20,000 bases of DNA, from the IMG/VR virus record IMGVR_UViG_3300029288_000157; one strand, given 5' to 3'. A program made the position numbers and the translations under genes. Each line of letters begins with the position of its first letter. The stretch's first letter is position 1. The notes beneath the pieces are model-generated. The model was given only the letters and a program-made list of their open reading frames with translations, had not been told where the DNA came from and did not search any database. Shown here piece after piece: positions 3,348 through 18,478 of the stretch. This DNA comes from an uncultured virus (IMG/VR IMGVR_UViG_3300029288_000157). Taxonomy: Duplodnaviria > Heunggongvirae > Uroviricota > Caudoviricetes.

Positions 3348-5948
3348 TTGACAGACGATATAGTAGAAAACATATTGAAGGAACGGTATTATCAGCCGGG
3401 TGAAACTTGTTGGGAAGACATCGCAAAGAGAGTAGGCAATTTTATTGGTGATGGTAAAGAAGAAAGAGAAACGTTCGTTGAATTAATTCAGAAGAAATAT
3501 ATTATTCCTGCAAGTCCGTTTTTAATGAATGCTGGAACTAATACTCCCCAATTATTTAGTTGTTTCGTGTTGCCAATAGAGGATAACATAGGAAGTATAT
3601 TCAAGTTTTATGCTGACGCCGCTACGGTCTTCAAGTTCTCGGGAGGAGTTGGTGCTTCATGGAGTGCTCTTCGACCAAAAGGAGCACCATTGTCAGGAGG
3701 AGGTGTAACTTCTGGAGTTTTATCATTCTTAAATATATATAATGAACTAATTGAAACTGTGTCCCAAGGAGGCAAGAAAAAGGGAGCCTCTATATGCCTT
3801 CTTGACATTGAACACCCAGAATGTAAATACTTTATCAGGTCAAAATTAATTGAGGGTCGGTTTAAAAACTTCAATATATCACCAGTTGTTACTGATGAAT
3901 TCATGAACAGAGTAATGAATGCGGAACAAACCGCTACTGAACTATTTGATTTGGTAGTTGATTGTACTTATAATTCATCGGAGCCTGGTCTATTATTCAT
4001 TGATACTATTAATAAAGATTGTTCAACTCCAGATCTCGGTGATTACGAAGCAGTGAATCCATGTATAAATGGACATACTTGTATTGTAATAAAAGAAGAT
4101 GCCAAAATAAATGTTGTTTTAATTAAAGATGTGGTTGATAAAGAAATAACTATTTGGAATGGATTTGAGTGGTCTAAAGTTACTCCTAAAATCACTGGTT
4201 ACAATAAGCAAATGGCTAACGTAACTATTAGATCTCGACAAGATGGATGGGTAACTACGTCATCAGTGAGATGCACTTTAAATCACCATTGGGTTATGGA
4301 AGATGGTAAGCGATTAAAAACCACTGAATTGAAACCCAGTTTTGAGTTGAGAAGTTGGTTAAGTCCTACTGATCCGAGAAGTGTTATTTATGGAACAGTT
4401 GAAAATGTAGAGATAGTGGATGGTGATATCGACGAAGTTGTTTATTGTCTTGAGGAACCAAAGTCTCATAGTTTTGTCGCAAATGGAATTCTAACAGGAA
4501 ATTGTGGAGAACGCCCCTTGTTTCCTTATGAGTCGTGTTGTTTAACTGCAATTGTAGTGCCAAAGTTTATCGTGGATGGTAAAGTTGATTATATAAATTT
4601 AGCAGATGTAGTAAGAGAGACTGTTAGATTCCTAGATAACTCGATGGATAAGAACTATTACCCAATTCCAGAAATACGAGAAGCAACCCTTAAGACACGA
4701 AGACTTGGCGCATACATCACCGGGTTTGCTGATGCATTGATAATGATGGGAATTAGATATGGATCTATAGAATCTATTAAGTTTATAGATGATGTATGGG
4801 GATTCATTAACGAAATTGCATGGCATGAATCGGTTCATTTGGGTATAGAAAAAGGAGTATTCCCTGCTTATTATACCAGAGATCCAGAAATAGTCCCAGA
4901 CGATGCTCGAAATGCGGCAGTAACATGTTTAGCACCATCGGGCACTACTAGTATATTTGCTGGTGTAAATTGGGGGATAGAACCAGTATATTCATTTGCA
5001 CAGCGGAGATCAGAAGGAGCGGGTCAAGGATTCCAAGTATTTTATCTGTTTGAAGAAATGCTTGATAAGTATTATCCTGATAAGAAATCAAAAATAATAG
5101 ACCATTGTGCGAAGTATGGGACAATTCAAGATATCCCGTACATAACAGATGAGATTAAGAATGTGTTTGTAACTGCACATGATCTTACATATAAAGATCA
5201 CATTGATGTGCAAGCAGCATTTCAAAAACATTGTAGAGATGGGAGTATAAGTAAGACTATTTCATTACCAAAGACTGCAACTAAAGATGATATAAGAAAT
5301 GCTTACATTTACGCATGGGAATCTGGATGCAAAGGTGTTACATTCTATAGGGAAGGTACTAGGAAAGGAGTTTATCAATTAGATCAGGAAGAAAACGATC
5401 AAGTTATCGAGATAAAAAATCCAGTTAAGTATAAATTAGTAACAAACCCAACTGGAAGAATTTTACCAAAAACTCCTCGTGAAGTTCCATCTATTACTTA
5501 CAAGAGAAATACAGGTTGCGGAAAGATGATGATATCCATAGGAGAGGTTAACGGAAGACCACATACCATTATCATAAAAAATAAAGGAGGATGTGATGCG
5601 ATGACACAGGCACTATCAGAATTGACCTCTCTAAACGAACGCTACGAAGTTCCACAATGGAACATTAATAAAGTCTTGATGGGAATACGATGTTCTGCAG
5701 CAATGAAAAATCCAAATTCAGATGGAAAATCATGTGCAGAAATACTTGGAAGAATACTGAATGATTTCTATCCCCATGAAGATGAACCACCTAAAGATGA
5801 TGAAGAACCACCAAAAGCAACTTCCCCTACAATAACAATAGATTACATAGAATCTTCACCATTAAAATGTCCTAAATGTGGAGAAACTCTAATAATGGCA
5901 GAAGGCTGTATGACTTGCAAAAATTGCTCGTATTCGAAGTGTAATTAG
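3348..5948 (+). CDS. nrdJ: Class II (adenosylcobalamin-dependent) ribonucleotide reductase with intein, C-terminal TSCPD-like domain and zinc ribbon
   Basis: PASPFLMNAG, FSCFVL, SGGVG, EPGLLFID, NP|CGE, APSGTTS, ISKTI, GCKGVTFYR, TGCGK, KSCAE and CPKCG...EGCMTCKNCSYSKC. No ATP cone. GGTGA RBS before the TTG start. Confidence 0.93.
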   Translation: MTDDIVENILKERYYQPGETCWEDIAKRVGNFIGDGKEERETFVELIQKKYIIPASPFLMNAGTNTPQLFSCFVLPIEDNIGSIFKFYADAATVFKFSGGVGASWSALRPKGAPLSGGGVTSGVLSFLNIYNELIETVSQGGKKKGASICLLDIEHPECKYFIRSKLIEGRFKNFNISPVVTDEFMNRVMNAEQTATELFDLVVDCTYNSSEPGLLFIDTINKDCSTPDLGDYEAVNPCINGHTCIVIKEDAKINVVLIKDVVDKEITIWNGFEWSKVTPKITGYNKQMANVTIRSRQDGWVTTSSVRCTLNHHWVMEDGKRLKTTELKPSFELRSWLSPTDPRSVIYGTVENVEIVDGDIDEVVYCLEEPKSHSFVANGILTGNCGERPLFPYESCCLTAIVVPKFIVDGKVDYINLADVVRETVRFLDNSMDKNYYPIPEIREATLKTRRLGAYITGFADALIMMGIRYGSIESIKFIDDVWGFINEIAWHESVHLGIEKGVFPAYYTRDPEIVPDDARNAAVTCLAPSGTTSIFAGVNWGIEPVYSFAQRRSEGAGQGFQVFYLFEEMLDKYYPDKKSKIIDHCAKYGTIQDIPYITDEIKNVFVTAHDLTYKDHIDVQAAFQKHCRDGSISKTISLPKTATKDDIRNAYIYAWESGCKGVTFYREGTRKGVYQLDQEENDQVIEIKNPVKYKLVTNPTGRILPKTPREVPSITYKRNTGCGKMMISIGEVNGRPHTIIIKNKGGCDAMTQALSELTSLNERYEVPQWNINKVLMGIRCSAAMKNPNSDGKSCAEILGRILNDFYPHEDEPPKDDEEPPKATSPTITIDYIESSPLKCPKCGETLIMAEGCMTCKNCSYSKCN
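4062..4502 (+). mobile_element. Mini-intein (147 aa, no homing endonuclease) at the RNR active-site NP/CGE position
   Basis: Begins CINGHT, block B CTLNHHW, block F VYCLEEPKSHSFVANG, ends LTGN before +1 Cys. Removal restores NPCGERPL. Confidence 0.9.
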
Positions 5949-6778: not shown

Positions 6779-7477
6779 ATGCGAATTGCTGGAACATGGG
6801 AAACACCCGTGGGATTTAACTTCCACATCCTTTTTAAACGTAAACTTCGAGACATAATTGAGTCAGATCCTGATGCCATTGGAAAGAATCTCTTGTGGCT
6901 CAACGACGCCGACTTTGACAGACGATTGGCAAAGCACGAGAAGGGCGATGCTATCATTATCAACGAAGAGTTCATACTGAAAATTGCCGAGAACTATCGT
7001 GCTGAACTAAAGCATCTTCGACCTGATGAGGATCTCAATCCAAATCTCGATAAGTTGATAGATTTCTTTGTGGCTCTTGATCTCAATGACACTGCTTATT
7101 ACGAACGAATAGGAGGCATCATCACCTACATCGTCTTACATCCCGAAGAATTTGCCAACAAAGACGGCATTCTAGACGTCCATGCTGACTTCACCAAGCA
7201 GATACAGAACATATGGGATTGGTGGAAACTTAATGACAAGCGTGACCGCACTAAAACCTGGATAAACTGGGGATTCCGTTTCCTCATGCACAAATACAAG
7301 TCCGAAAAGAAACTACCGCAACGCAAACAGTTCTGGCGCACCTCGATTAACATCTGCCTCATCTTCATCGTGGCCAACCACAAGAACTGGAAAGTAATCG
7401 ATGCCTACAACCCCAACAACTGGTTCGGCAAGTACAAAGGCTCTCAAATCATGGCATTCTACGGAGGAGACTTCTAA
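6779..7477 (+). CDS. Hypothetical aromatic-rich helical protein (232 aa)
   Basis: Long ORF downstream of a TATA box, with C-ending codon bias; no family recognised. Confidence 0.75.
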   Translation: MRIAGTWETPVGFNFHILFKRKLRDIIESDPDAIGKNLLWLNDADFDRRLAKHEKGDAIIINEEFILKIAENYRAELKHLRPDEDLNPNLDKLIDFFVALDLNDTAYYERIGGIITYIVLHPEEFANKDGILDVHADFTKQIQNIWDWWKLNDKRDRTKTWINWGFRFLMHKYKSEKKLPQRKQFWRTSINICLIFIVANHKNWKVIDAYNPNNWFGKYKGSQIMAFYGGDF

Positions 7478-10098: not shown

Positions 10099-10686
10099 AT
10101 GATAGACGAATCACCAGACAACCCATATCGCCGCTTCAAGAACCAACTTGAATACGTTGAATTGTACATGGAAGACCTCATCCTCCTCAAGCGGCGTCGC
10201 GCGAATATACGGGTAATGGGACTTCTCCTTTTTCACAACTATCTCAATGGCTGTGACGGCGACGTGATTCTCCTCATGGAAATCAATGAGTTGGAAAGAA
10301 AATTGGAACGACTAGATCTGACACCATTTGTCAAGAATGAGATAACCCAGATGTTATACGAAAAGCGCCGGGACTATGAATCCTCACGGAGAGCAAAGGA
10401 CTTCCTGACTGGGTTGATTGAGTTTGAGTGGGCAATCGAAGAGTATATGGACCCCACCGACATTATGCGCCATGCCGAGCAGTTAATCAAGAAAATACAG
10501 TTATATAACGAGAAGTTCGATCCGTTGAAGTATATCGAGAATTATAAATTGCGGAAGAAGTGTCCTAAAAACCCTTTTGTTGTCGATGATTATAAGGCAA
10601 TAACCAATACGCCGCGAAAACGGGTTAAGGCTTCGAAAAAGAAAAAATCTATGTATGACTCTATGAAGTATGAGATTCAGATGTGA
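10099..10686 (+). CDS. Hypothetical helical protein with basic C-terminus (195 aa)
   Basis: Starts 1 nt after the stop of the MCM-like gene. Confidence 0.7.
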   Translation: MIDESPDNPYRRFKNQLEYVELYMEDLILLKRRRANIRVMGLLLFHNYLNGCDGDVILLMEINELERKLERLDLTPFVKNEITQMLYEKRRDYESSRRAKDFLTGLIEFEWAIEEYMDPTDIMRHAEQLIKKIQLYNEKFDPLKYIENYKLRKKCPKNPFVVDDYKAITNTPRKRVKASKKKKSMYDSMKYEIQM

Positions 10687-11053
10687 AATTATATGCTTCT
10701 CGTAATTGTTCCCATTTATCAGGGTAGATCATTAGCCAAGTAGGATATTCAACACAGCAGGTTGGTTTACAACGACCTCTGCCTTTTATTCTAACGTGTT
10801 CATTTTCCCGTTCAAGACATATCCTTTCAGACAACTCATAGTATTGGAGAACTTGTAAAAAAGAATTGAAATCGTCCCATTTAGGATCATCGTCTTCCAC
10901 GTAATTTTGAGACTCTTCCCAAATAGTTCCCAGATAAGTTACTATTCCACCAGTGCGCTGCAATTTCTTTAAAAACCAACGTGCTGGTTTGTTATGTCTC
11001 TTCAGAGAATACTGATATTCTACGTCTATTTGTTCCGCCATATTACATCTCAC
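10661..11053 (-). CDS. Hypothetical protein (130 aa)
   Basis: ATGA overlap with the BppU-like gene; converges on the + strand operon. Confidence 0.65.
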   Translation of the reverse strand: MRCNMAEQIDVEYQYSLKRHNKPARWFLKKLQRTGGIVTYLGTIWEESQNYVEDDDPKWDDFNSFLQVLQYYELSERICLERENEHVRIKGRGRCKPTCCVEYPTWLMIYPDKWEQLREAYNFTSESHTS

Positions 11054-11400
11054 ATATATGAGTCTCCCAAGACTAAAAAACTTTGCACGTCGTACTCGGG
11101 GAAGTTCAATGTGTGGCCGGTGCTGTCCTCAACAATGAACACGAACCGATACATGTCTGCAGTTGCGGTGTAGAGGGAGTCCATTTCGTAGTAGACCCAT
11201 CCTGACGTGGCGATATCGATTGTTGCGGGGGCATTGTCAATTATTACGTTGGATGATGAGTCCCACATGGTGAAGTATACGTCGCAGTTGGTGAGATCGT
11301 AGGGAACGTCTTGATTTTCTAATGCGTCCCAAGTTACGCACTGGTAATCAATAGGTTTTTTGTCTCCTACTTTGAATATGATGGTCGGATAGCGTGTCAT
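11050..11400 (-). CDS. BppU N-terminal-domain-like baseplate/tail adaptor protein
   Basis: Pattern KVGD...PYDLTNCDVYFTM...ATSGWVYY...YRFVFIV...GHTLNFP is typical of BppU_N-like Ig-fold proteins. Confidence 0.7.
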   Translation of the reverse strand: MTRYPTIIFKVGDKKPIDYQCVTWDALENQDVPYDLTNCDVYFTMWDSSSNVIIDNAPATIDIATSGWVYYEMDSLYTATADMYRFVFIVEDSTGHTLNFPEYDVQSFLVLGDSYM

Positions 11401-11449: not shown

Positions 11450-11580
11450 ATTTATATAATGTTAGATACTAATATGTATGTGCCCCACTACAGCATGATG
11501 GAGAAGGAGACCCCCTCCTTTTTTCATTTTGTTGACACCGTTTTCTTGCCATTTTGAGCCTCGAGTTATGCCATTTTTGG
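11450..11580 (+). repeat. Copy A of imperfect inverted repeat (partner 12988-13097)
   Basis: 11455-11487 matches the reverse complement of 13062-13094 at 29/33 nt. 11521-11540 matches the reverse complement of 13008-13027 at 19/20. Both copies also share GCCTC...CATTTTTGG. Confidence 0.85.
11482..11524 (+). ncRNA. Putative small RNA A (about 43 nt)
   Basis: TTTATATA box at 11451-11458, about 23 nt upstream; ends in hairpin AAGGAG-ACCCC-CTCCTT plus T-tract. Confidence 0.35.
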
Positions 11581-11586
11581 GTTACA

Positions 11587-11604
11587 TTTATATGCCTTGT
11601 CAAC
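11587..11604 (+). promoter_or_regulatory. TATA box TTTATATG followed by TTGTCAAC
   Basis: Box ends 26 nt before ATG 11621; no RBS. Confidence 0.5.
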
Positions 11605-11620
11605 CAACTCTATTTAACAA

Positions 11621-12370
11621 ATGAAAAAAGTTCTTATAGTTAATGATCTCCACTGCGGCAGCGTTTATGGTCTCGGCGTTCCCAATTTTGTCGGTGGAGG
11701 CGGATACACGTTGCCCTTCACTGAAACAAACCGCTTCCTTTATGACCGGTGGCAGCAGATGATCAGCACTGTCGGTCACGTCGATCTCGTGGTGGCAAAT
11801 GGCGACCTCGTTGAAGGACTTAATAAAAAGAAGAACGGTGCCGAAACCCTCACTCCCTACATAGCCGATCAGTCTAAAATCGCTGCAGAACTCCTAAAAC
11901 AAATCGACACCACTGAATACGCTTTCACTGGGGGCAGTGGCTATCATATGGGGCAGGACATCAACGGCGATCAAGAAGTGTGTGACAAAGTTGGCGGCAC
12001 ATGGTTCGGCCCCGACGGCTACATTAAAATCGAGGGCATCAAGATCCATGTCCGGCACGTTGCTAACTACTCCAAACTTCCGCACTCGCGCGCTACCCCC
12101 ATCCTGTTCGACTTCCTCATTGCGGCTATCCAGGGCGACGACACTAACATCTTCATTCGCTCTCATACCCACAAATTCGTCTACGCAGGCACCCACAACC
12201 GACTCGGCTTCACAACCCCCTGCTGGAAAGGCGTGGACACATACATCCGCGAAAAAGGCATGGAAAAAACCGACTGCGGATGGGTCTTAATAACAATTGA
12301 CGGCTCCTCTTACACATGGCAACACTGCGTCTTCCAAGCCCCCGACACAACACCGGTTTTAAGGATCTAA
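11621..12370 (+). CDS. Calcineurin-like metallophosphoesterase
   Basis: DLHCG, NGDLVEG, GSGYH in place of GNH, HVRH and RSHTH. Confidence 0.82.
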   Translation: MKKVLIVNDLHCGSVYGLGVPNFVGGGGYTLPFTETNRFLYDRWQQMISTVGHVDLVVANGDLVEGLNKKKNGAETLTPYIADQSKIAAELLKQIDTTEYAFTGGSGYHMGQDINGDQEVCDKVGGTWFGPDGYIKIEGIKIHVRHVANYSKLPHSRATPILFDFLIAAIQGDDTNIFIRSHTHKFVYAGTHNRLGFTTPCWKGVDTYIREKGMEKTDCGWVLITIDGSSYTWQHCVFQAPDTTPVLRI

Positions 12371-12411
12371 TCGATACTTTTTTCTCCTCTTAACGCACAT
12401 AGTATGTTGTT

Positions 12412-12681
12412 ATGAAAACCCAATATGAAATACAGCCATGTGTAATAGACGAGAATGATTGGTATTGGCACAAGTATCCATACAATCATGTAGAATCTTG
12501 TAATTGTATATTTTATGTACCAGAACAGATGGGAGGAGATGAAACCAATCGCCCAACATATTGTGCAATTCATGGTTATGACTTTCCTATAGAAGGATGC
12601 AATTACAGAAAAACGATTCGAGAGGTACTAGATGAAACTGACTTTAATCGACGTAGAGAAACACAAGAAGGCCATTCTTGA
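12412..12681 (+). CDS. Small Cys-rich protein (89 aa)
   Basis: CNCIFY...YCAIH...CNYRKTIRE. Confidence 0.6.
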   Translation: MKTQYEIQPCVIDENDWYWHKYPYNHVESCNCIFYVPEQMGGDETNRPTYCAIHGYDFPIEGCNYRKTIREVLDETDFNRRRETQEGHS

Positions 12682-12781
12682 ACTTCTCAATTCACAGGAA
12701 TGTAGAGATCGTTCTGAAAAATTCAACCAAGAAATGAAACGAAAACTAGCAAATCACGAAGATAAGGAGTTCAATATATGA
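12632..12781 (+). CDS. Small helical protein (49 aa), not in ORF track
   Basis: GAGGT RBS; MKLTLIDVEKHKKAILELLNSQECRDRSEKFNQEMKRKLANHEDKEFNI; ATGA overlap with the next gene. Confidence 0.6.
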   Translation: MKLTLIDVEKHKKAILELLNSQECRDRSEKFNQEMKRKLANHEDKEFNI

Positions 12782-12972
12782 ACCGTGATAAATTCGTAAG
12801 CGAGTTGTCTGGAATAACTGACCCGGACTGCATATATTATAGCCCACATTATAACAGGCACATGCCGGGGTTCTGCTCCATTGCCAAGAAATACGGAAAA
12901 TCATATCCATACTGCGATGCATCTTTTGGACAGTGTGAAATACGCGACGAAGAACTAAACAATCTTTCTTGA
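12778..12972 (+). CDS. Small Cys-rich protein (64 aa)
   Basis: AAGGAG RBS; DCIYY...FCSI...YCDASFGQC. Confidence 0.6.
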   Translation: MNRDKFVSELSGITDPDCIYYSPHYNRHMPGFCSIAKKYGKSYPYCDASFGQCEIRDEELNNLS

Positions 12973-12987
12973 ATTTTAAATTCGCTG

Positions 12988-13097
12988 CCAAAAATGCCCT
13001 CGTGAGGCGGCGTCAACAAAATGAAAAGGAAGAAAGATCTTCTCCCTTTTGCATTCCGTCTTGGGGCACATATCTATTAGTTCCTAACATTATAAAT
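12988..13097 (-). repeat. Copy B of imperfect inverted repeat (partner 11450-11580)
   Basis: Reverse complement reads ATTTATAATGTTAGGAACTAATAGATATGTGCCCCA...GGAGAAG...TTTTCATTTTGTTGACGCCGCCTC...CATTTTTGG. Confidence 0.85.
13024..13067 (-). ncRNA. Putative small RNA B (about 44 nt)
   Basis: Minus-strand TTTATAAT box about 21 nt upstream. The 3' hairpin AAAAGGGAGAAG-ATC-TTTCTTCCTTTT pairs fully (with G-U) only on the minus strand. Confidence 0.35.
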
Positions 13098-13120: not shown

Positions 13121-13990
13121 ATGGAAGAACCCACTTCAATCCAATCAGCAGCACCGAAGGAAGACCTGCTCTCTGTAGTAGCAGTAGTCGATCTCGATCC
13201 ACTCGTCGCCTTGCAAAAGCCAGAATACCAGGAAATGCTCACGGTAATCAACGATTCGGCACTAGAAATCCAAAGAACTACCCAGATTTTTAACAAAACT
13301 CAATCGCAGTTCATGGATAACCTTTTAACGGTAAGTCATCTCACCCCATTTCGAAATCTGCGACAAGTCCTAGCCGAGATGACACGAACGCGCAGTGCAC
13401 TGAACGAAGCATATTTCAACTTGGAACTGAAGAAGATCAAAGTGGATCGGCTTAAATACAAACTACTGGGCGAAAATGATGACTTTAAATGTAAAAAATT
13501 GGAAATCAAAATCCAGCAAGCCGAGTATCAAATCGCTTCTTCCATGGAGTACGTCAACAGCGCGATTCGTAAAATGGCAAACTACACTGCGCAGTACAAC
13601 AGCATCAAGAAGCAACTTCCTGATCTCTCCGAGAAAACTTTCGAGGAACAAGAGGAGCGCTACCATATCATGAAGGCATTCGAGCAGGGACTCTGTGCCG
13701 CGCGGTCTCATGGTAGGTTCATTGACGAGGGCAATCAGATCTATCTTCATCAGGTGGGCATCAACGGCAGTCTTGCGCAGGTAGAAATGTCCAAGTATCT
13801 CAACTGGGAATACAGCACCATTGACAAGGGAGGCGAAGTGACCCACGAGGATCAGTTGAAGTGGCTCGAAAGTATGGCTGATAAGTTCAAAGGATGTGCC
13901 ACCAAGTTTGCTGAATACAAGGGCATGACAGTCATGAGTGAATTTGCCTGCACCGGTTGGGAAAACTACGTCGAGGAGGACAAAGAATGA
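13121..13990 (+). CDS. Coiled-coil viral protein of unknown function (289 aa)
   Basis: Long helical ORF with TP-x-R-x-LRQ-x-LAE and IDEGNQIYLHQVGIN motifs; TATAAATA box 22 nt upstream. Confidence 0.75.
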   Translation: MEEPTSIQSAAPKEDLLSVVAVVDLDPLVALQKPEYQEMLTVINDSALEIQRTTQIFNKTQSQFMDNLLTVSHLTPFRNLRQVLAEMTRTRSALNEAYFNLELKKIKVDRLKYKLLGENDDFKCKKLEIKIQQAEYQIASSMEYVNSAIRKMANYTAQYNSIKKQLPDLSEKTFEEQEERYHIMKAFEQGLCAARSHGRFIDEGNQIYLHQVGINGSLAQVEMSKYLNWEYSTIDKGGEVTHEDQLKWLESMADKFKGCATKFAEYKGMTVMSEFACTGWENYVEEDKE

Positions 13991-15220: not shown

Positions 15221-16123
15221 TTATAGGCCGCCGTGACAGTTAGAGCAACATGCGGGATAATATCTTCCAATAGTTAAATTTCCAAATTCATTAGAATTGG
15301 ATTTTTCCGATATTGTGACATAGTTGATAATATCATTAGAAGAAGAAGAACTAGAACTTCCAAAAATTCCTGATATAGTGGATGCACAAGATTTTTGTGC
15401 ATGGTTATTATCCCAATACGTTAGGTCTCCAAAATCTTGTGCATTTCCTCCTGATGCTATTGTTATGTAGTCTATGGCATTTGAAATGTCTCCTCCATTA
15501 AAAATGCCACGTGTTTGCGAACTACATCCATCTACATACATTTTTTCTACTGTAAGATCTCCGAACGCTGATACATTTCCTATGGTAGATATTGTAATAT
15601 AACTTATGGATTTTAAATATGTAGAACCTGTTATTCCACCTGCAAATATGCCACGGGTTGAGGATGCACAAGAAGATAATCGTTGTGTTATAACATCTAG
15701 ATCGCCGAAATCTATGGCGTCTGTTTCTTCTGATATTGTAATATAATCAATTACATTAGTTAAGGCACTCGTTCCTCTGCCTCCTCCAAATATACCACGA
15801 GTTGATGAAGAGCATGCTGCCAAATCTGATTGCAATGTTGTTAGACTTCCGAAACTTTGAGCAATACCAGTTATAGCAAATGTAATATAATCTATAATAT
15901 TTAGGTAATTACCATCATGGCCACCTGAAAATACTCCGCGCGTTGATGATGAACAAGATGCTAACTGTGATCGTGCAGTTGAGAGATTTCCAAAATTTAA
16001 TGCATTGGATTTATTTGAAATTTCAATATAATCTATTGTATTTACCAATATTGCAGTAAAACCTCCACCAAATAATCCTCTAGTTTTGCCACTGTTGCCA
16101 ACGAATCCATTAATAATGCTCAT
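15221..16123 (-). CDS. Six-repeat beta-propeller-like protein, probable virion adhesin
   Basis: Six ~47-aa repeats STRGIFxGG...IDYITI...A.DFGDLT; ends HGGL; ATGA overlap with the upstream fibre gene. Confidence 0.7.
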   Translation of the reverse strand: MSIINGFVGNSGKTRGLFGGGFTAILVNTIDYIEISNKSNALNFGNLSTARSQLASCSSSTRGVFSGGHDGNYLNIIDYITFAITGIAQSFGSLTTLQSDLAACSSSTRGIFGGGRGTSALTNVIDYITISEETDAIDFGDLDVITQRLSSCASSTRGIFAGGITGSTYLKSISYITISTIGNVSAFGDLTVEKMYVDGCSSQTRGIFNGGDISNAIDYITIASGGNAQDFGDLTYWDNNHAQKSCASTISGIFGSSSSSSSNDIINYVTISEKSNSNEFGNLTIGRYYPACCSNCHGGL

Positions 16124-17494: not shown

Positions 17495-18478
17495 TCACAT
17501 TCCTATCATCATTGGTGAGGTTCCAACTGATACCCCTGATCCTGTTGGTAATGTCACTTTAAAGCCTTCAATAACATCATATCTATTCGTTCCATTATAT
17601 CCTCCCATAACATAGATATAATTGCCAACTGATGCACAACCAGTGTAATATTTGGCAACGGACAATACAGGTTCTTCTGTTAGTGCTGTTAATTCTCCAG
17701 TTGAAGGGTTTACAGAAAAACCTTCTATTACATTAGTTGCTGCTGTAGTATATCCTCCCATAACATAGATATAATTGCCAACTGATGCGCAACTAACTCC
17801 ATATTTGGCAACGGACAATACAGGTTCTCCTGTTAGTGCTGTTAATTCTCCAGTTGAAGGGTTTACAGAAAAACCTTCTATGGTATCGACTATTCCTGTA
17901 GATGCACTTCCGCCGAACGCGTAAATGAATTTGCCAACTGATGCGCAACTTATAGCATGTTTGGCAACGGATAACGTTGGTTCTCCTGTTAACGCCGTAA
18001 GTGCTCCGGTTGAAGAGTTTACGCTAAAGCCTTCAATAACATCATATCTATTCGTTCCATTATATCCTCCCATAACATAGATATAATTGCCAACTGATGC
18101 ACAACCAGTAGCAAATTTTGCCGCTGATAAATTGGGTTCTTCTGTTAGTGCTGTTAATTCTCCAGTTGAAGGGTTTACAGAAAAACCTTCTATTACATTA
18201 GTTGCTGCTGTAGTATATCCTCCCATAACATAGATATAATTGCCAACTGATGCACAACTAATAGACTGCTTACCCGCTGATAAATTAGGTTCTTCTGTTA
18301 GTGCTGTTAATTCTCCAGTTGAAGGGTTTACAGAAAAACCTTCTATTACATTTGTTGAACTTGTTGTTAAACCACCGAATGCGTAAGTGAATTTGCCAAC
18401 TGATGCGCAACCAAAAGCATATTTTGTAGCAGATAGAGTGGTTAATCCAGTTAATGCAATTAGCCTTCCATCCGGCAT
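17495..18478 (-). CDS. Kelch-like six-bladed beta-propeller, probable receptor-binding protein
   Basis: Six 51-52-aa repeats LS..K....CASVG.YIY..GG......IEGFSVN.STGELTALT. Confidence 0.8.
   Translation of the reverse strand: MPDGRLIALTGLTTLSATKYAFGCASVGKFTYAFGGLTTSSTNVIEGFSVNPSTGELTALTEEPNLSAGKQSISCASVGNYIYVMGGYTTAATNVIEGFSVNPSTGELTALTEEPNLSAAKFATGCASVGNYIYVMGGYNGTNRYDVIEGFSVNSSTGALTALTGEPTLSVAKHAISCASVGKFIYAFGGSASTGIVDTIEGFSVNPSTGELTALTGEPVLSVAKYGVSCASVGNYIYVMGGYTTAATNVIEGFSVNPSTGELTALTEEPVLSVAKYYTGCASVGNYIYVMGGYNGTNRYDVIEGFKVTLPTGSGVSVGTSPMMIGM
17561..18462 (-). repeat. Coding tandem repeat, 153-156 nt units with a higher-order period of about 465 nt
   Basis: The ~85-nt block starting AAAGCCTTCAATAACATC at 17561 recurs identically at 18026. 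TTAGTGCTGTTAATTCTCCAGTTGAAGGGTTTACAGAAAAACCTTCTAT occurs four times. Confidence 0.9.

Follow-up and report, generated by a model that had tools for sequence, protein, structure and literature searches.

The DNA analysed here is a window of 20,000 nucleotides (nt) from an uncultured virus (IMG/VR record IMGVR_UViG_3300029288_000157); it corresponds to positions 52,823-72,822 of a single 72,822-bp contig, G000, classed as a virus record. Two intergenic elements in this window, units A and B, face each other across a small gene cassette and belong to a family of repeated units. Judging from promoter geometry and folding, each unit is very probably a self-terminating mini-gene for a hairpin RNA. 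The reading favoured here is that these transcribed hairpin RNAs also act in cis as operon borders (insulators), for which the probability is roughly 0.45; once a transcribed hairpin RNA is granted, the odds of the border role are slightly better than even.

All units share one order of parts. A TATA box is followed by the motif GT(G/A)C, a C/A-rich leader of 6-10 nt, a purine-rich 5' arm, a variable upper stem and loop, and a U-rich 3' arm that ends in UUGUU at the base of the stem; after these come a virus-specific tail of 6-7 nt and further T-tracts. The TATA box lies 27-29 nt from the G of GT(G/A)C in 23 distinct units. Transcription is predicted to start at the second purine, a position derived from the spacing and from the T-purine step (TG in 37 of 43 units, TA in five and TT in one). 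The TATA box thereby comes to lie at about -30 to -23, a geometry similar to that reported for Thermococcus promoters (PMC5316973; here and below, published work is cited from parts of the papers concerned). The distance from the predicted +1 to UUGUU is 47-68 nt over the 43 units, and the predicted RNAs of A and B reach at least 52 and 53 nt respectively. The hairpin itself comprises 16-25 bp and is rich in G-U (165 of 917 predicted pairs in the 43 units).

The hairpin is evident in most units. The promoter-sense strand gives the more stable fold in 42/43 units, and 41/43 have z scores below -2 against dinucleotide shuffles. The G of UUGUU stands opposite C in 35 units and opposite U in seven; one copy has an A-U pair there. 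In an alignment fitted to the fold, which includes three shadow rows, 88% of the cells are paired and 8 of 14 pairs show two-sided changes. When DNA energies are used, the hairpins of the window are weak and nearly strand-symmetric (-5.5/-5.4 for A, -9.6/-8.2 for B); in these models the signal favours RNA rather than single-stranded DNA. Two or more U4 tracts occur within -31 to +25 of the stem base in 33/43 units. Archaeal terminators are described as U-tracts which do not require a hairpin (PMC8716108). The T-tract module downstream of unit A is likely to be a back-up terminator. In this module (11541-11580) and its counterparts in the G000 copies, T-tracts and GC blocks alternate at a spacing of roughly 11-12 nt, most clearly at 41528+; the spacing resembles bent-DNA or histone-positioning sequence, and about 25 nt behind the first motif there is a recurrent second one.

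The original prediction, made from the letters alone, described A and B as twin inverted genes for RNAs of about 44 nt with a constant 5' handle, a variable core and a terminator hairpin. Its sequence observations are borne out. Block 1 is identical at 29/33 positions (11455-11487 versus the reverse complement of 13062-13094) and block 2 at 19/20 (11521-11540 versus 13008-13027); both copies end in CATTTTTGG (11572-11580(+) and 12996-12988(-)), and the distance from the end of the TATA-like box to the shared GCCCCA is 23 nt in A and 21 nt in B. The A/B inverted repeat is the longest in the window, with a BLAST E value of 2.7e-9 within the G000 genome. Sequence and folding also support the central proposal of inward-directed short hairpin RNA genes, each with its own TATA promoter and a start near 11482(+) or 13067(-). 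The details differ. The proposed ends stop 9-10 nt inside the conserved stem, which makes 44 nt too short. Block 1 lies mostly upstream of the predicted +1 and would be promoter DNA instead of a long RNA handle. The core is not a free guide sequence; it is the 5' arm of the hairpin, pairs with block 2, and varies chiefly by A/G and C/U changes that preserve pairing with the invariant 3' arm. The described hairpin is present, but the real stem is longer and takes in both core and block 2.

The claim that the stem works only on the inward strand was too strong, as copy A folds better outward on a 46-nt window (-14.1 vs -12.0); with the full stem the inward strand is preferred in both copies (inward/outward -18.8/-16.0 for A and -21.5/-14.7 for B). 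Covariation, suggested as a check, was found in part: RNAalifold and pair counts give two-sided changes in 6-8 of 14 pairs, and most changes are one-sided wobble changes. Antisense targets within the viruses' own genomes (G000 and G004) did not emerge; the longest match was 14 nt, against shuffled-control maxima of 14 and 17. As the prediction had anticipated, the units match no known RNA family: Rfam searches at E<=10 with the window region and seven other copies returned chance-level matches only (best E 3.2), and no CRISPR-repeat family was among the matches for the nine G000 copies. Outward transcription is a separate matter. Read on the + strand, the AT-rich box of unit B lies 31 nt before ATG 13121; because the same spacing is seen at other apparently leaderless genes, the box probably also drives transcription outward to this ATG and is possibly bidirectional. 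Such transcription is compatible with an inward RNA.

The two units are not a lone pair. The suggested search for further copies gave nine in G000 (BLAST, motif and hidden Markov model (HMM) searches; contig positions 1723-, 5894-, 13938-, 24185+, 25278-, 41528+, 43451-, 64302+ (A) and 65891- (B)) and 15 and 17 in two relatives. The nine G000 copies, which served for training, score HMM E values of 1e-25 to 1e-32; the next match has E 0.026. Virus 2 (records G001, G002, G003 and G005) has 15 units, counted in G001, G002 and G005, and virus 3 (G004; 135 kb, with its first bases repeated at its end) has 17. Both viruses were uncovered by promoter-only pattern searches of IMG/VR, and their PolB proteins share 36-43% identity with the G000 protein. 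All three viruses have the same fold and UUGUU base; the tail differs, being GACRCCG in G000, ATGRYG in virus 2 and mostly TAGAGT in virus 3.

Models of two parts of the unit recover the family. A profile of positions -36 to +14, which spans the promoter, the leader and the first few stem bases, was trained on 35 units and found six further sites, all six with hairpin and tail; these sites are out-of-sample, though two of them had been glimpsed earlier. Every match of at least 18.8 bits is a unit, and the next match scores 12.9. A covariance model built from 11 virus-1-type RNA bodies without the promoter found 15/17 virus 3 units and 2/15 virus 2 units on the promoter-sense strand; otherwise it gave three opposite-strand shadows and nothing more in 467,296 bases at E<=1. 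These profiles replaced a generic TATA-plus-hairpin detector which was too loose (seven matches on reversed controls).

Wider searches yielded few members. In a metagenome pattern scan (119 loci from 17/64 parts of the collection), scoring of 120 loci gave two full homologues, L063 and L046. Because the end of a contig from the one DNA run matches the L063 unit, this homologue may belong to the same virus population and is not counted as independent. A 378-aa tnpB-like ORF, named by eye, is inserted back-to-back with the unit in L046 (1200-2333) and is lacking from the matching locus L063. Promoter patterns gave family members at 3/27 and 23/43 loci, and the remainder had no such hairpin in the sequences inspected. 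Strict two-block patterns matched viral contigs zero times and once, the single match being an unrelated high-GC coding region. Block 2 alone matched one viral and 46 genome loci, none of which bore an archaeal title or scored as a complete unit. Locus searches seeded with the phosphoesterase or an AAA_24 gene found nothing, none of 12 loci found with gene 13121 contained a unit (seven of them were also covered by the covariance-model search), and a BLAST search of cultured phages gave one chance match only. No description of the family was found in the literature searched. The structured-RNA catalogue of PMC10690425 gave no match in three of six supplementary files, and the family may sit unnamed among its alignments.

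Two variant sites were seen during these searches. G002:C1:63635-63800 (L221), next to the RNase H gene, holds a tandem of two variant units whose leader and tail are different. The site G000:C1:24332 (+) (L210) has an initiator-like motif which runs over the start codon of a gene that the three viruses have in common; it is possibly a decayed unit that became a gene promoter.

Features of the A/B region (window positions; parts of the - strand units are given in the direction of transcription).
Feature	Position	Strand	Remarks
BppU_N-like gene	10661-11400 (feature span 11050-11400)	-	back-to-back with unit A
Unit A TATA box, TTTATATA	11451-11458	+	29 nt before GTGC
Unit A promoter spacer and initiator-like TATGTGC	11459-11483	+	predicted +1 at G 11482
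Unit A predicted RNA	11482-11540	+	fold z -5.5; 5'-arm shuffle 0/100 as good; covariance-model match (training member)
Unit A predicted RNA parts	leader 11482-11490; 5' arm 11491-11509; loop 11510-11514; 3' arm 11515-11534, ending UUGUU; tail GACACCG 11534-11540	+	
Unit A downstream T-tract module	11541-11580	+	T-runs alternate with GC blocks, ends CATTTTTGG; alignment of 11 copies
Separate TATA-like box	11587-11594	+	34 nt before ATG 11621
Metallophosphoesterase-like gene	11621-12370	+	enclosed by the A/B pair; weak PF00149 match
Two small Cys-rich ORFs	12412-12681; 12778-12972	+	inside the A/B pair; no family found in family search
Unit B downstream module	12972-13007	-	includes CATTTTTGG at 12996-12988
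Unit B predicted RNA	13008-13067	-	fold z -4.0; 5'-arm shuffle 3/100 as good; covariance-model match (training member)
Unit B predicted RNA parts	+1 13067; leader to 13061; 5' arm 13060-13040; loop 13039-13035; 3' arm 13034-13015; tail GACGCCG 13014-13008	-	
Unit B promoter	13066-13096	-	TATA box TTTATAAT 13096-13089; initiator-like TATGTGC 13072-13066
289-aa gene, phrog_1409 (unknown function)	13121-13990	+	back-to-back with unit B

Neighbouring units that point towards each other lie close together: the gaps between them span 0.2-6.1 kb in the tail-to-tail case (median 1.3 kb; n=15) and 4.8-30 kb between back-to-back neighbours (median 13 kb; n=13). A tail-to-tail pair surrounds the metallophosphoesterase-like gene in all three viruses, and some other pairs hold no gene. 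Viruses 2 and 3 have units at the same borders after PolB, in the portal/scaffold region, before a gene of tape-measure size and before the terminase block, gene names which come partly from size and order. In G000, 6/9 units face a gene end, and at 7/9 a gene starts back-to-back with the unit. Where a single unit lies within a run of genes of one direction, it opposes these genes in 6/6 cases, a gene-map reading which is weak with about four independent sites. Co-oriented genes start 133-357 nt from the unit, and of 16 genes that follow a unit of their own orientation, 10 carry a separate TATA-like box at 27-35 nt from the ATG; since most of these genes have such a box, the units are not needed as promoters for messenger RNA (mRNA). 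Gene 11621, which has a TATA-like box of its own at this distance, likewise is likely to have its own promoter.

The copies resemble each other most within a virus. The nearest neighbour of 38/43 units lies in the same virus, and units at orthologous positions are not mutual best matches; by these comparisons, unit positions are inherited while sequences are homogenised in each virus. The BppU_N-like gene lies outside the pair and is inverted in G000, and its orthologues in viruses 2 and 3 are co-oriented and enclosed by the pair; in G000 a local rearrangement at unit A has likely flipped the gene out. No inversion joint was found at the units in contigs of one DNA run, where rare variants drop out.

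In the favoured reading, host RNA polymerase would transcribe each unit, from about 11482(+) in A and 13067(-) in B according to promoter geometry, into a G-U-rich hairpin RNA of 55-70 nt. The transcript would end at U-tracts that lie within the 3' arm or immediately behind it; the purine-rich arm would then close over these tracts and shield the RNA end. The border role is proposed because of the position and orientation of the units. Just past a stop codon, a unit would serve as sense terminator for the operon before it, and a unit opposing the gene flow would be an actively transcribed head-on block against read-through, ahead of the next promoter. One sense and one head-on unit would thus form a tail-to-tail pair which walls off a small gene cassette; this layout would also avoid a deletion-prone direct repeat. 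There is a precedent for collision-driven termination in E. coli only (10.1101/2022.10.23.513370).

A number of results weigh against this reading. Collision termination by an archaeal polymerase was not found in the literature covered, and the E. coli system uses one shared hairpin rather than two units 0.2-6 kb apart (10.1101/2022.10.23.513370). Unit A and the units at G004 90070- and G005 55237+ are located at divergent junctions without an incoming mRNA. The pattern of incoming transcripts has little power in any case, as nearly any intergenic site receives one from one side, and orthologous pairs are not independent in the counts of gaps and positions. A block in cis leaves the 3' arm and tail, homogenised in each virus, unexplained; the per-virus tails suggest a binding partner. 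The hairpin evidence also has weak points. Purine-rich and U-rich arms pair easily through G-U, and in a harder control in which only the 5' arm was shuffled, just 26/43 units beat at least 99/100 shuffles; G000 copies 1723 and 5894 fail this control. The excess of G-U over A-C in the nine basal pairs (96 cells vs 4) is biased by choosing the best-pairing register. Only one U4 tract is present in 8/43 units and none in 2/43, and at the G000 site 24332+ no long hairpin accompanies the initiator motif.

The binding partner suggested by the tails keeps alive a rival in which the units are RNA genes acting in trans. Abundant hairpins would titrate a host or viral RNA-binding factor (a termination factor, nuclease, Sm-like ring or defence sensor), and the location of the units at borders would reflect only that no other place suits a strong promoter plus terminator. 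The invariant UUGUU and the virus-specific tail suggest recognition by a factor, and a dedicated promoter class with consensus TATA boxes, the gene-free pairs and the units without incoming mRNA all fit such a product. It would, however, need neither 15-17 conserved sites nor tail-to-tail clustering. Pfam scans of 132 G000 ORFs and of 105/195 G004 ORFs gave no Sm, Cas, Argonaute, Nop or Ro60 family, and neither the Rfam nor the own-genome search described above revealed a CRISPR repeat or a target; on balance a trans role is rather doubtful. The homogenised copies can also be explained by recombination between them. The repeat could be mainly a homology block for swapping or inverting modules, with promoter and terminator as passengers, as in the PeSL (promoter early stem-loop) cassettes whose recombination was shown in T4-type phages (PMC2839356); recombination at an intergenic motif has also been proposed for HGTV-1 (PMC3950731). 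Cassette content does differ among viruses at some pairs. Yet unit positions and the metallophosphoesterase cassette have been retained at a protein identity of about 40%, homogenisation applies to the pairing of the 5' arms and not to the arms themselves, copies near each other are inverted rather than direct, and the 3' end has no ribosome-binding site or start codon. A shuffling cassette is accordingly unlikely as the primary function.

The remaining explanations treat the units as DNA elements to a greater degree. A tail-to-tail pair might supply primers or opening for two replication forks and so be a transcription-primed origin. GC skew steps up at one syntenic pair in the three viruses (+0.16, +0.47 and +0.20), most G000 units point away from that pair, and RNase H and PolB genes are present with no primase family in the Pfam scans. 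At the A/B pair and its orthologues there is no upward step (-0.06, -0.01 and -0.24, the last on a left flank of 0.7 kb only), just 9/15 pairs step upward, the skew of G004 changes sign near 57-60 kb, 20 kb from the syntenic pair, and a self-folding RNA would be a poor R-loop primer. An origin function is quite unlikely for the units in general; it may still hold for one other pair of G000. The likely earliest genes (G000:C1:1-14000 and G004:C1:60000-84000) have a strongly C-rich coding strand, which confounds GC skew as an origin signal. It is very unlikely that the units are only promoter repeats at the DNA level, with TATA boxes serving neighbouring genes and a hairpin without a role in RNA. 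The intergenic repeats of halovirus HF2 are proven promoters, some of them bidirectional (PMC8707807), and both the spacing of the B box to ATG 13121 and the frequent back-to-back gene starts in G000 are in keeping with this. The initiator, however, is at a fixed distance on the inward side alone, and on the outward side the spacing to the ATG ranges between about 25 and 90 nt; most G000 units point at a gene end, pairing is strand-biased, and downstream genes mostly have boxes of their own. Most improbable is a non-autonomous mobile repeat (similar to a MITE or to the single-strand hairpin of IS200/IS605 ends). The units are multi-copy and occur in both orientations, the L046 homologue lies beside the tnpB-like ORF, and the L063 unit lies in a tail-gene region; on the other side stand syntenic positions across viruses, weak DNA hairpins, no terminal inverted repeats or target duplications evident by eye in alignments, and no transposase or integrase family in the Pfam scans.

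Several known systems resemble the units in part. The PeSL is likewise a dispersed intergenic repeat of about 100 bp with a strong promoter and a G-T-containing stem-loop, sits at the borders of gene modules and was proposed to isolate them (PMC2839356). Its stem-loop is in or before the promoter, whereas the stem of the units starts 6-10 nt after the predicted +1, and its cassette ends in the Shine-Dalgarno sequence and start codon of a co-oriented gene, whereas no ORF directly follows the units (PMC2839356). Many units point against genes, unlike PeSLs, and close copies are tail-to-tail. The intergenic motif of HGTV-1, compared from a review, also belongs to an archaeal tailed virus and has a repeated TATA-like region together with an inverted repeat; it precedes most ORFs of one genome arm and is thus a gene promoter (PMC3950731). 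The units, in contrast, are few, self-contained and often antisense. The class I and II intergenic repeats of HF2 share conserved TATA and initiator blocks, positions conserved across a virus genus, a start at a fixed G and counter-transcripts; they are promoters of 29-58 bp, and the parts of the paper covered here mention no long transcribed hairpin or self-termination (PMC8707807). As in HF2 and HGTV-1, a repeated TATA box and initiator occur at conserved intergenic positions in the units. They do not appear to drive an adjacent co-oriented ORF; all profile matches of at least 18.8 bits lead into a hairpin instead, and the B box may be used outward. In the E. coli collision terminators, head-on and trailing polymerases together with a nascent stem-loop stop read-through, as proposed here, but a single hairpin is shared between convergent bacterial genes and there is no dedicated promoter or repeat family (10.1101/2022.10.23.513370).

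Other small-RNA systems bear on the trans role only, or could be set aside. Adenovirus VA RNA and polymerase-III pre-miRNA hairpins have their own promoter, a hairpin, an oligo-U end and a high dose. They belong to another domain and another polymerase, and serve as an analogy for the decoy alternative only. Racr is an RNA anti-CRISPR, a solitary repeat unit which mimics a host CRISPR repeat, is bound and cut by Cas6 and inhibits interference (PMC10651486). A TIGR array (PMC12045711) was rejected: the units are solitary and 0.2-30 kb apart, and what follows their single CCA-like leader pairs with the invariant arm. TIGR arrays adjoin a Nop-domain Tas gene; Pfam scans of 132 G000 and 105 G004 ORFs, in which a divergent Tas could be missed, gave no Nop family. 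H/ACA guide RNAs combine a guide pocket with the GA steps of a K-turn and an ANA box at the base of the stem. The archaeal form was also rejected, as ANA occurs within 3 nt of the stem base in 6/43 units, a GA step occurs in the last 20 nt of the 3' arm in 0/43, and there is no Rfam match. A small-ORF or type I toxin-antitoxin locus is not supported either; the first reverse-strand ORFs of the nine G000 copies differ in frame and length or are absent, and encode no conserved peptide. By this comparison the units appear to be a form of repeated promoter-stem-loop element built around an undescribed RNA family, and there is a real chance that they are a new kind of element.

G000 is likely an archaeal tailed virus, given its TATA-type promoters and the tail-tube and terminase matches in a relative. 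Pfam scans of the window found thymidylate synthase, ribonucleotide reductase, DNA methylase, ERCC4 nuclease and tail-type proteins; those of the rest of the contig found PolB, RuvB, RNase H and glycosyltransferases. Haloarchaeal tailed viruses are among the best matches of the G000 PolB, at about 26-27% identity. The landfill source and the G+C content of 30-50% suggest that the host may be a methanogen. The metallophosphoesterase-like gene between A and B has a Pfam PF00149 match of E 0.008; an orthologue was found at E 3.3e-7, and the orthologues in both related viruses are about 39-40% identical. No transfer RNA was found in the window (ARAGORN).

Other features of the contig lie apart from the units. 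The ribonucleotide reductase (window 3348-5948, +) has an insertion of about 150 residues with intein-like ends, judged by eye, and is matched by Pfam in three stretches; the G000 PolB also carries a Pfam intein match. Two tail-region proteins with tandem repeats are encoded at window 15221-16123 and 17495-18478 (-), the second being a Kelch-type propeller with DNA repeats of 153/156 nt. A cluster of glycosyltransferase, methyltransferase and radical-SAM genes (G000:C1:45156-53187) is partly common to G004; glycosylation of the virion or DNA is possible. An ESM Atlas search with the window ORF 6779-7477 gave scores of 0.77 and nothing further.

Little is known about how large archaeal tailed viruses that use host polymerase keep early, middle and late gene blocks apart, and archaeal termination is not regarded as dependent on hairpins (PMC8716108). 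The units offer 43 natural variants of a promoter-hairpin-terminator module of roughly 100 bp with clear invariant positions. With these one can ask whether head-on transcription insulates archaeal operons, and whether a hairpin over its own U-tract alters termination or stability. A speculative extension, which we consider somewhat unlikely, is that the units are a new class of element in archaeal viruses. They would be transcription-driven insulators which wall off operons by their own firing rather than by a bound repressor; tail-to-tail pairs would partition a 135-kb genome, the virus-specific tail would be read by a co-evolving viral or host factor, and the same abundant RNAs might additionally be decoys for the termination or decay machinery of the host. 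Should the RNAs act in trans, an undescribed class of viral small RNA would be at hand. The units are also candidate strong promoters and insulators for methanogen genetics.

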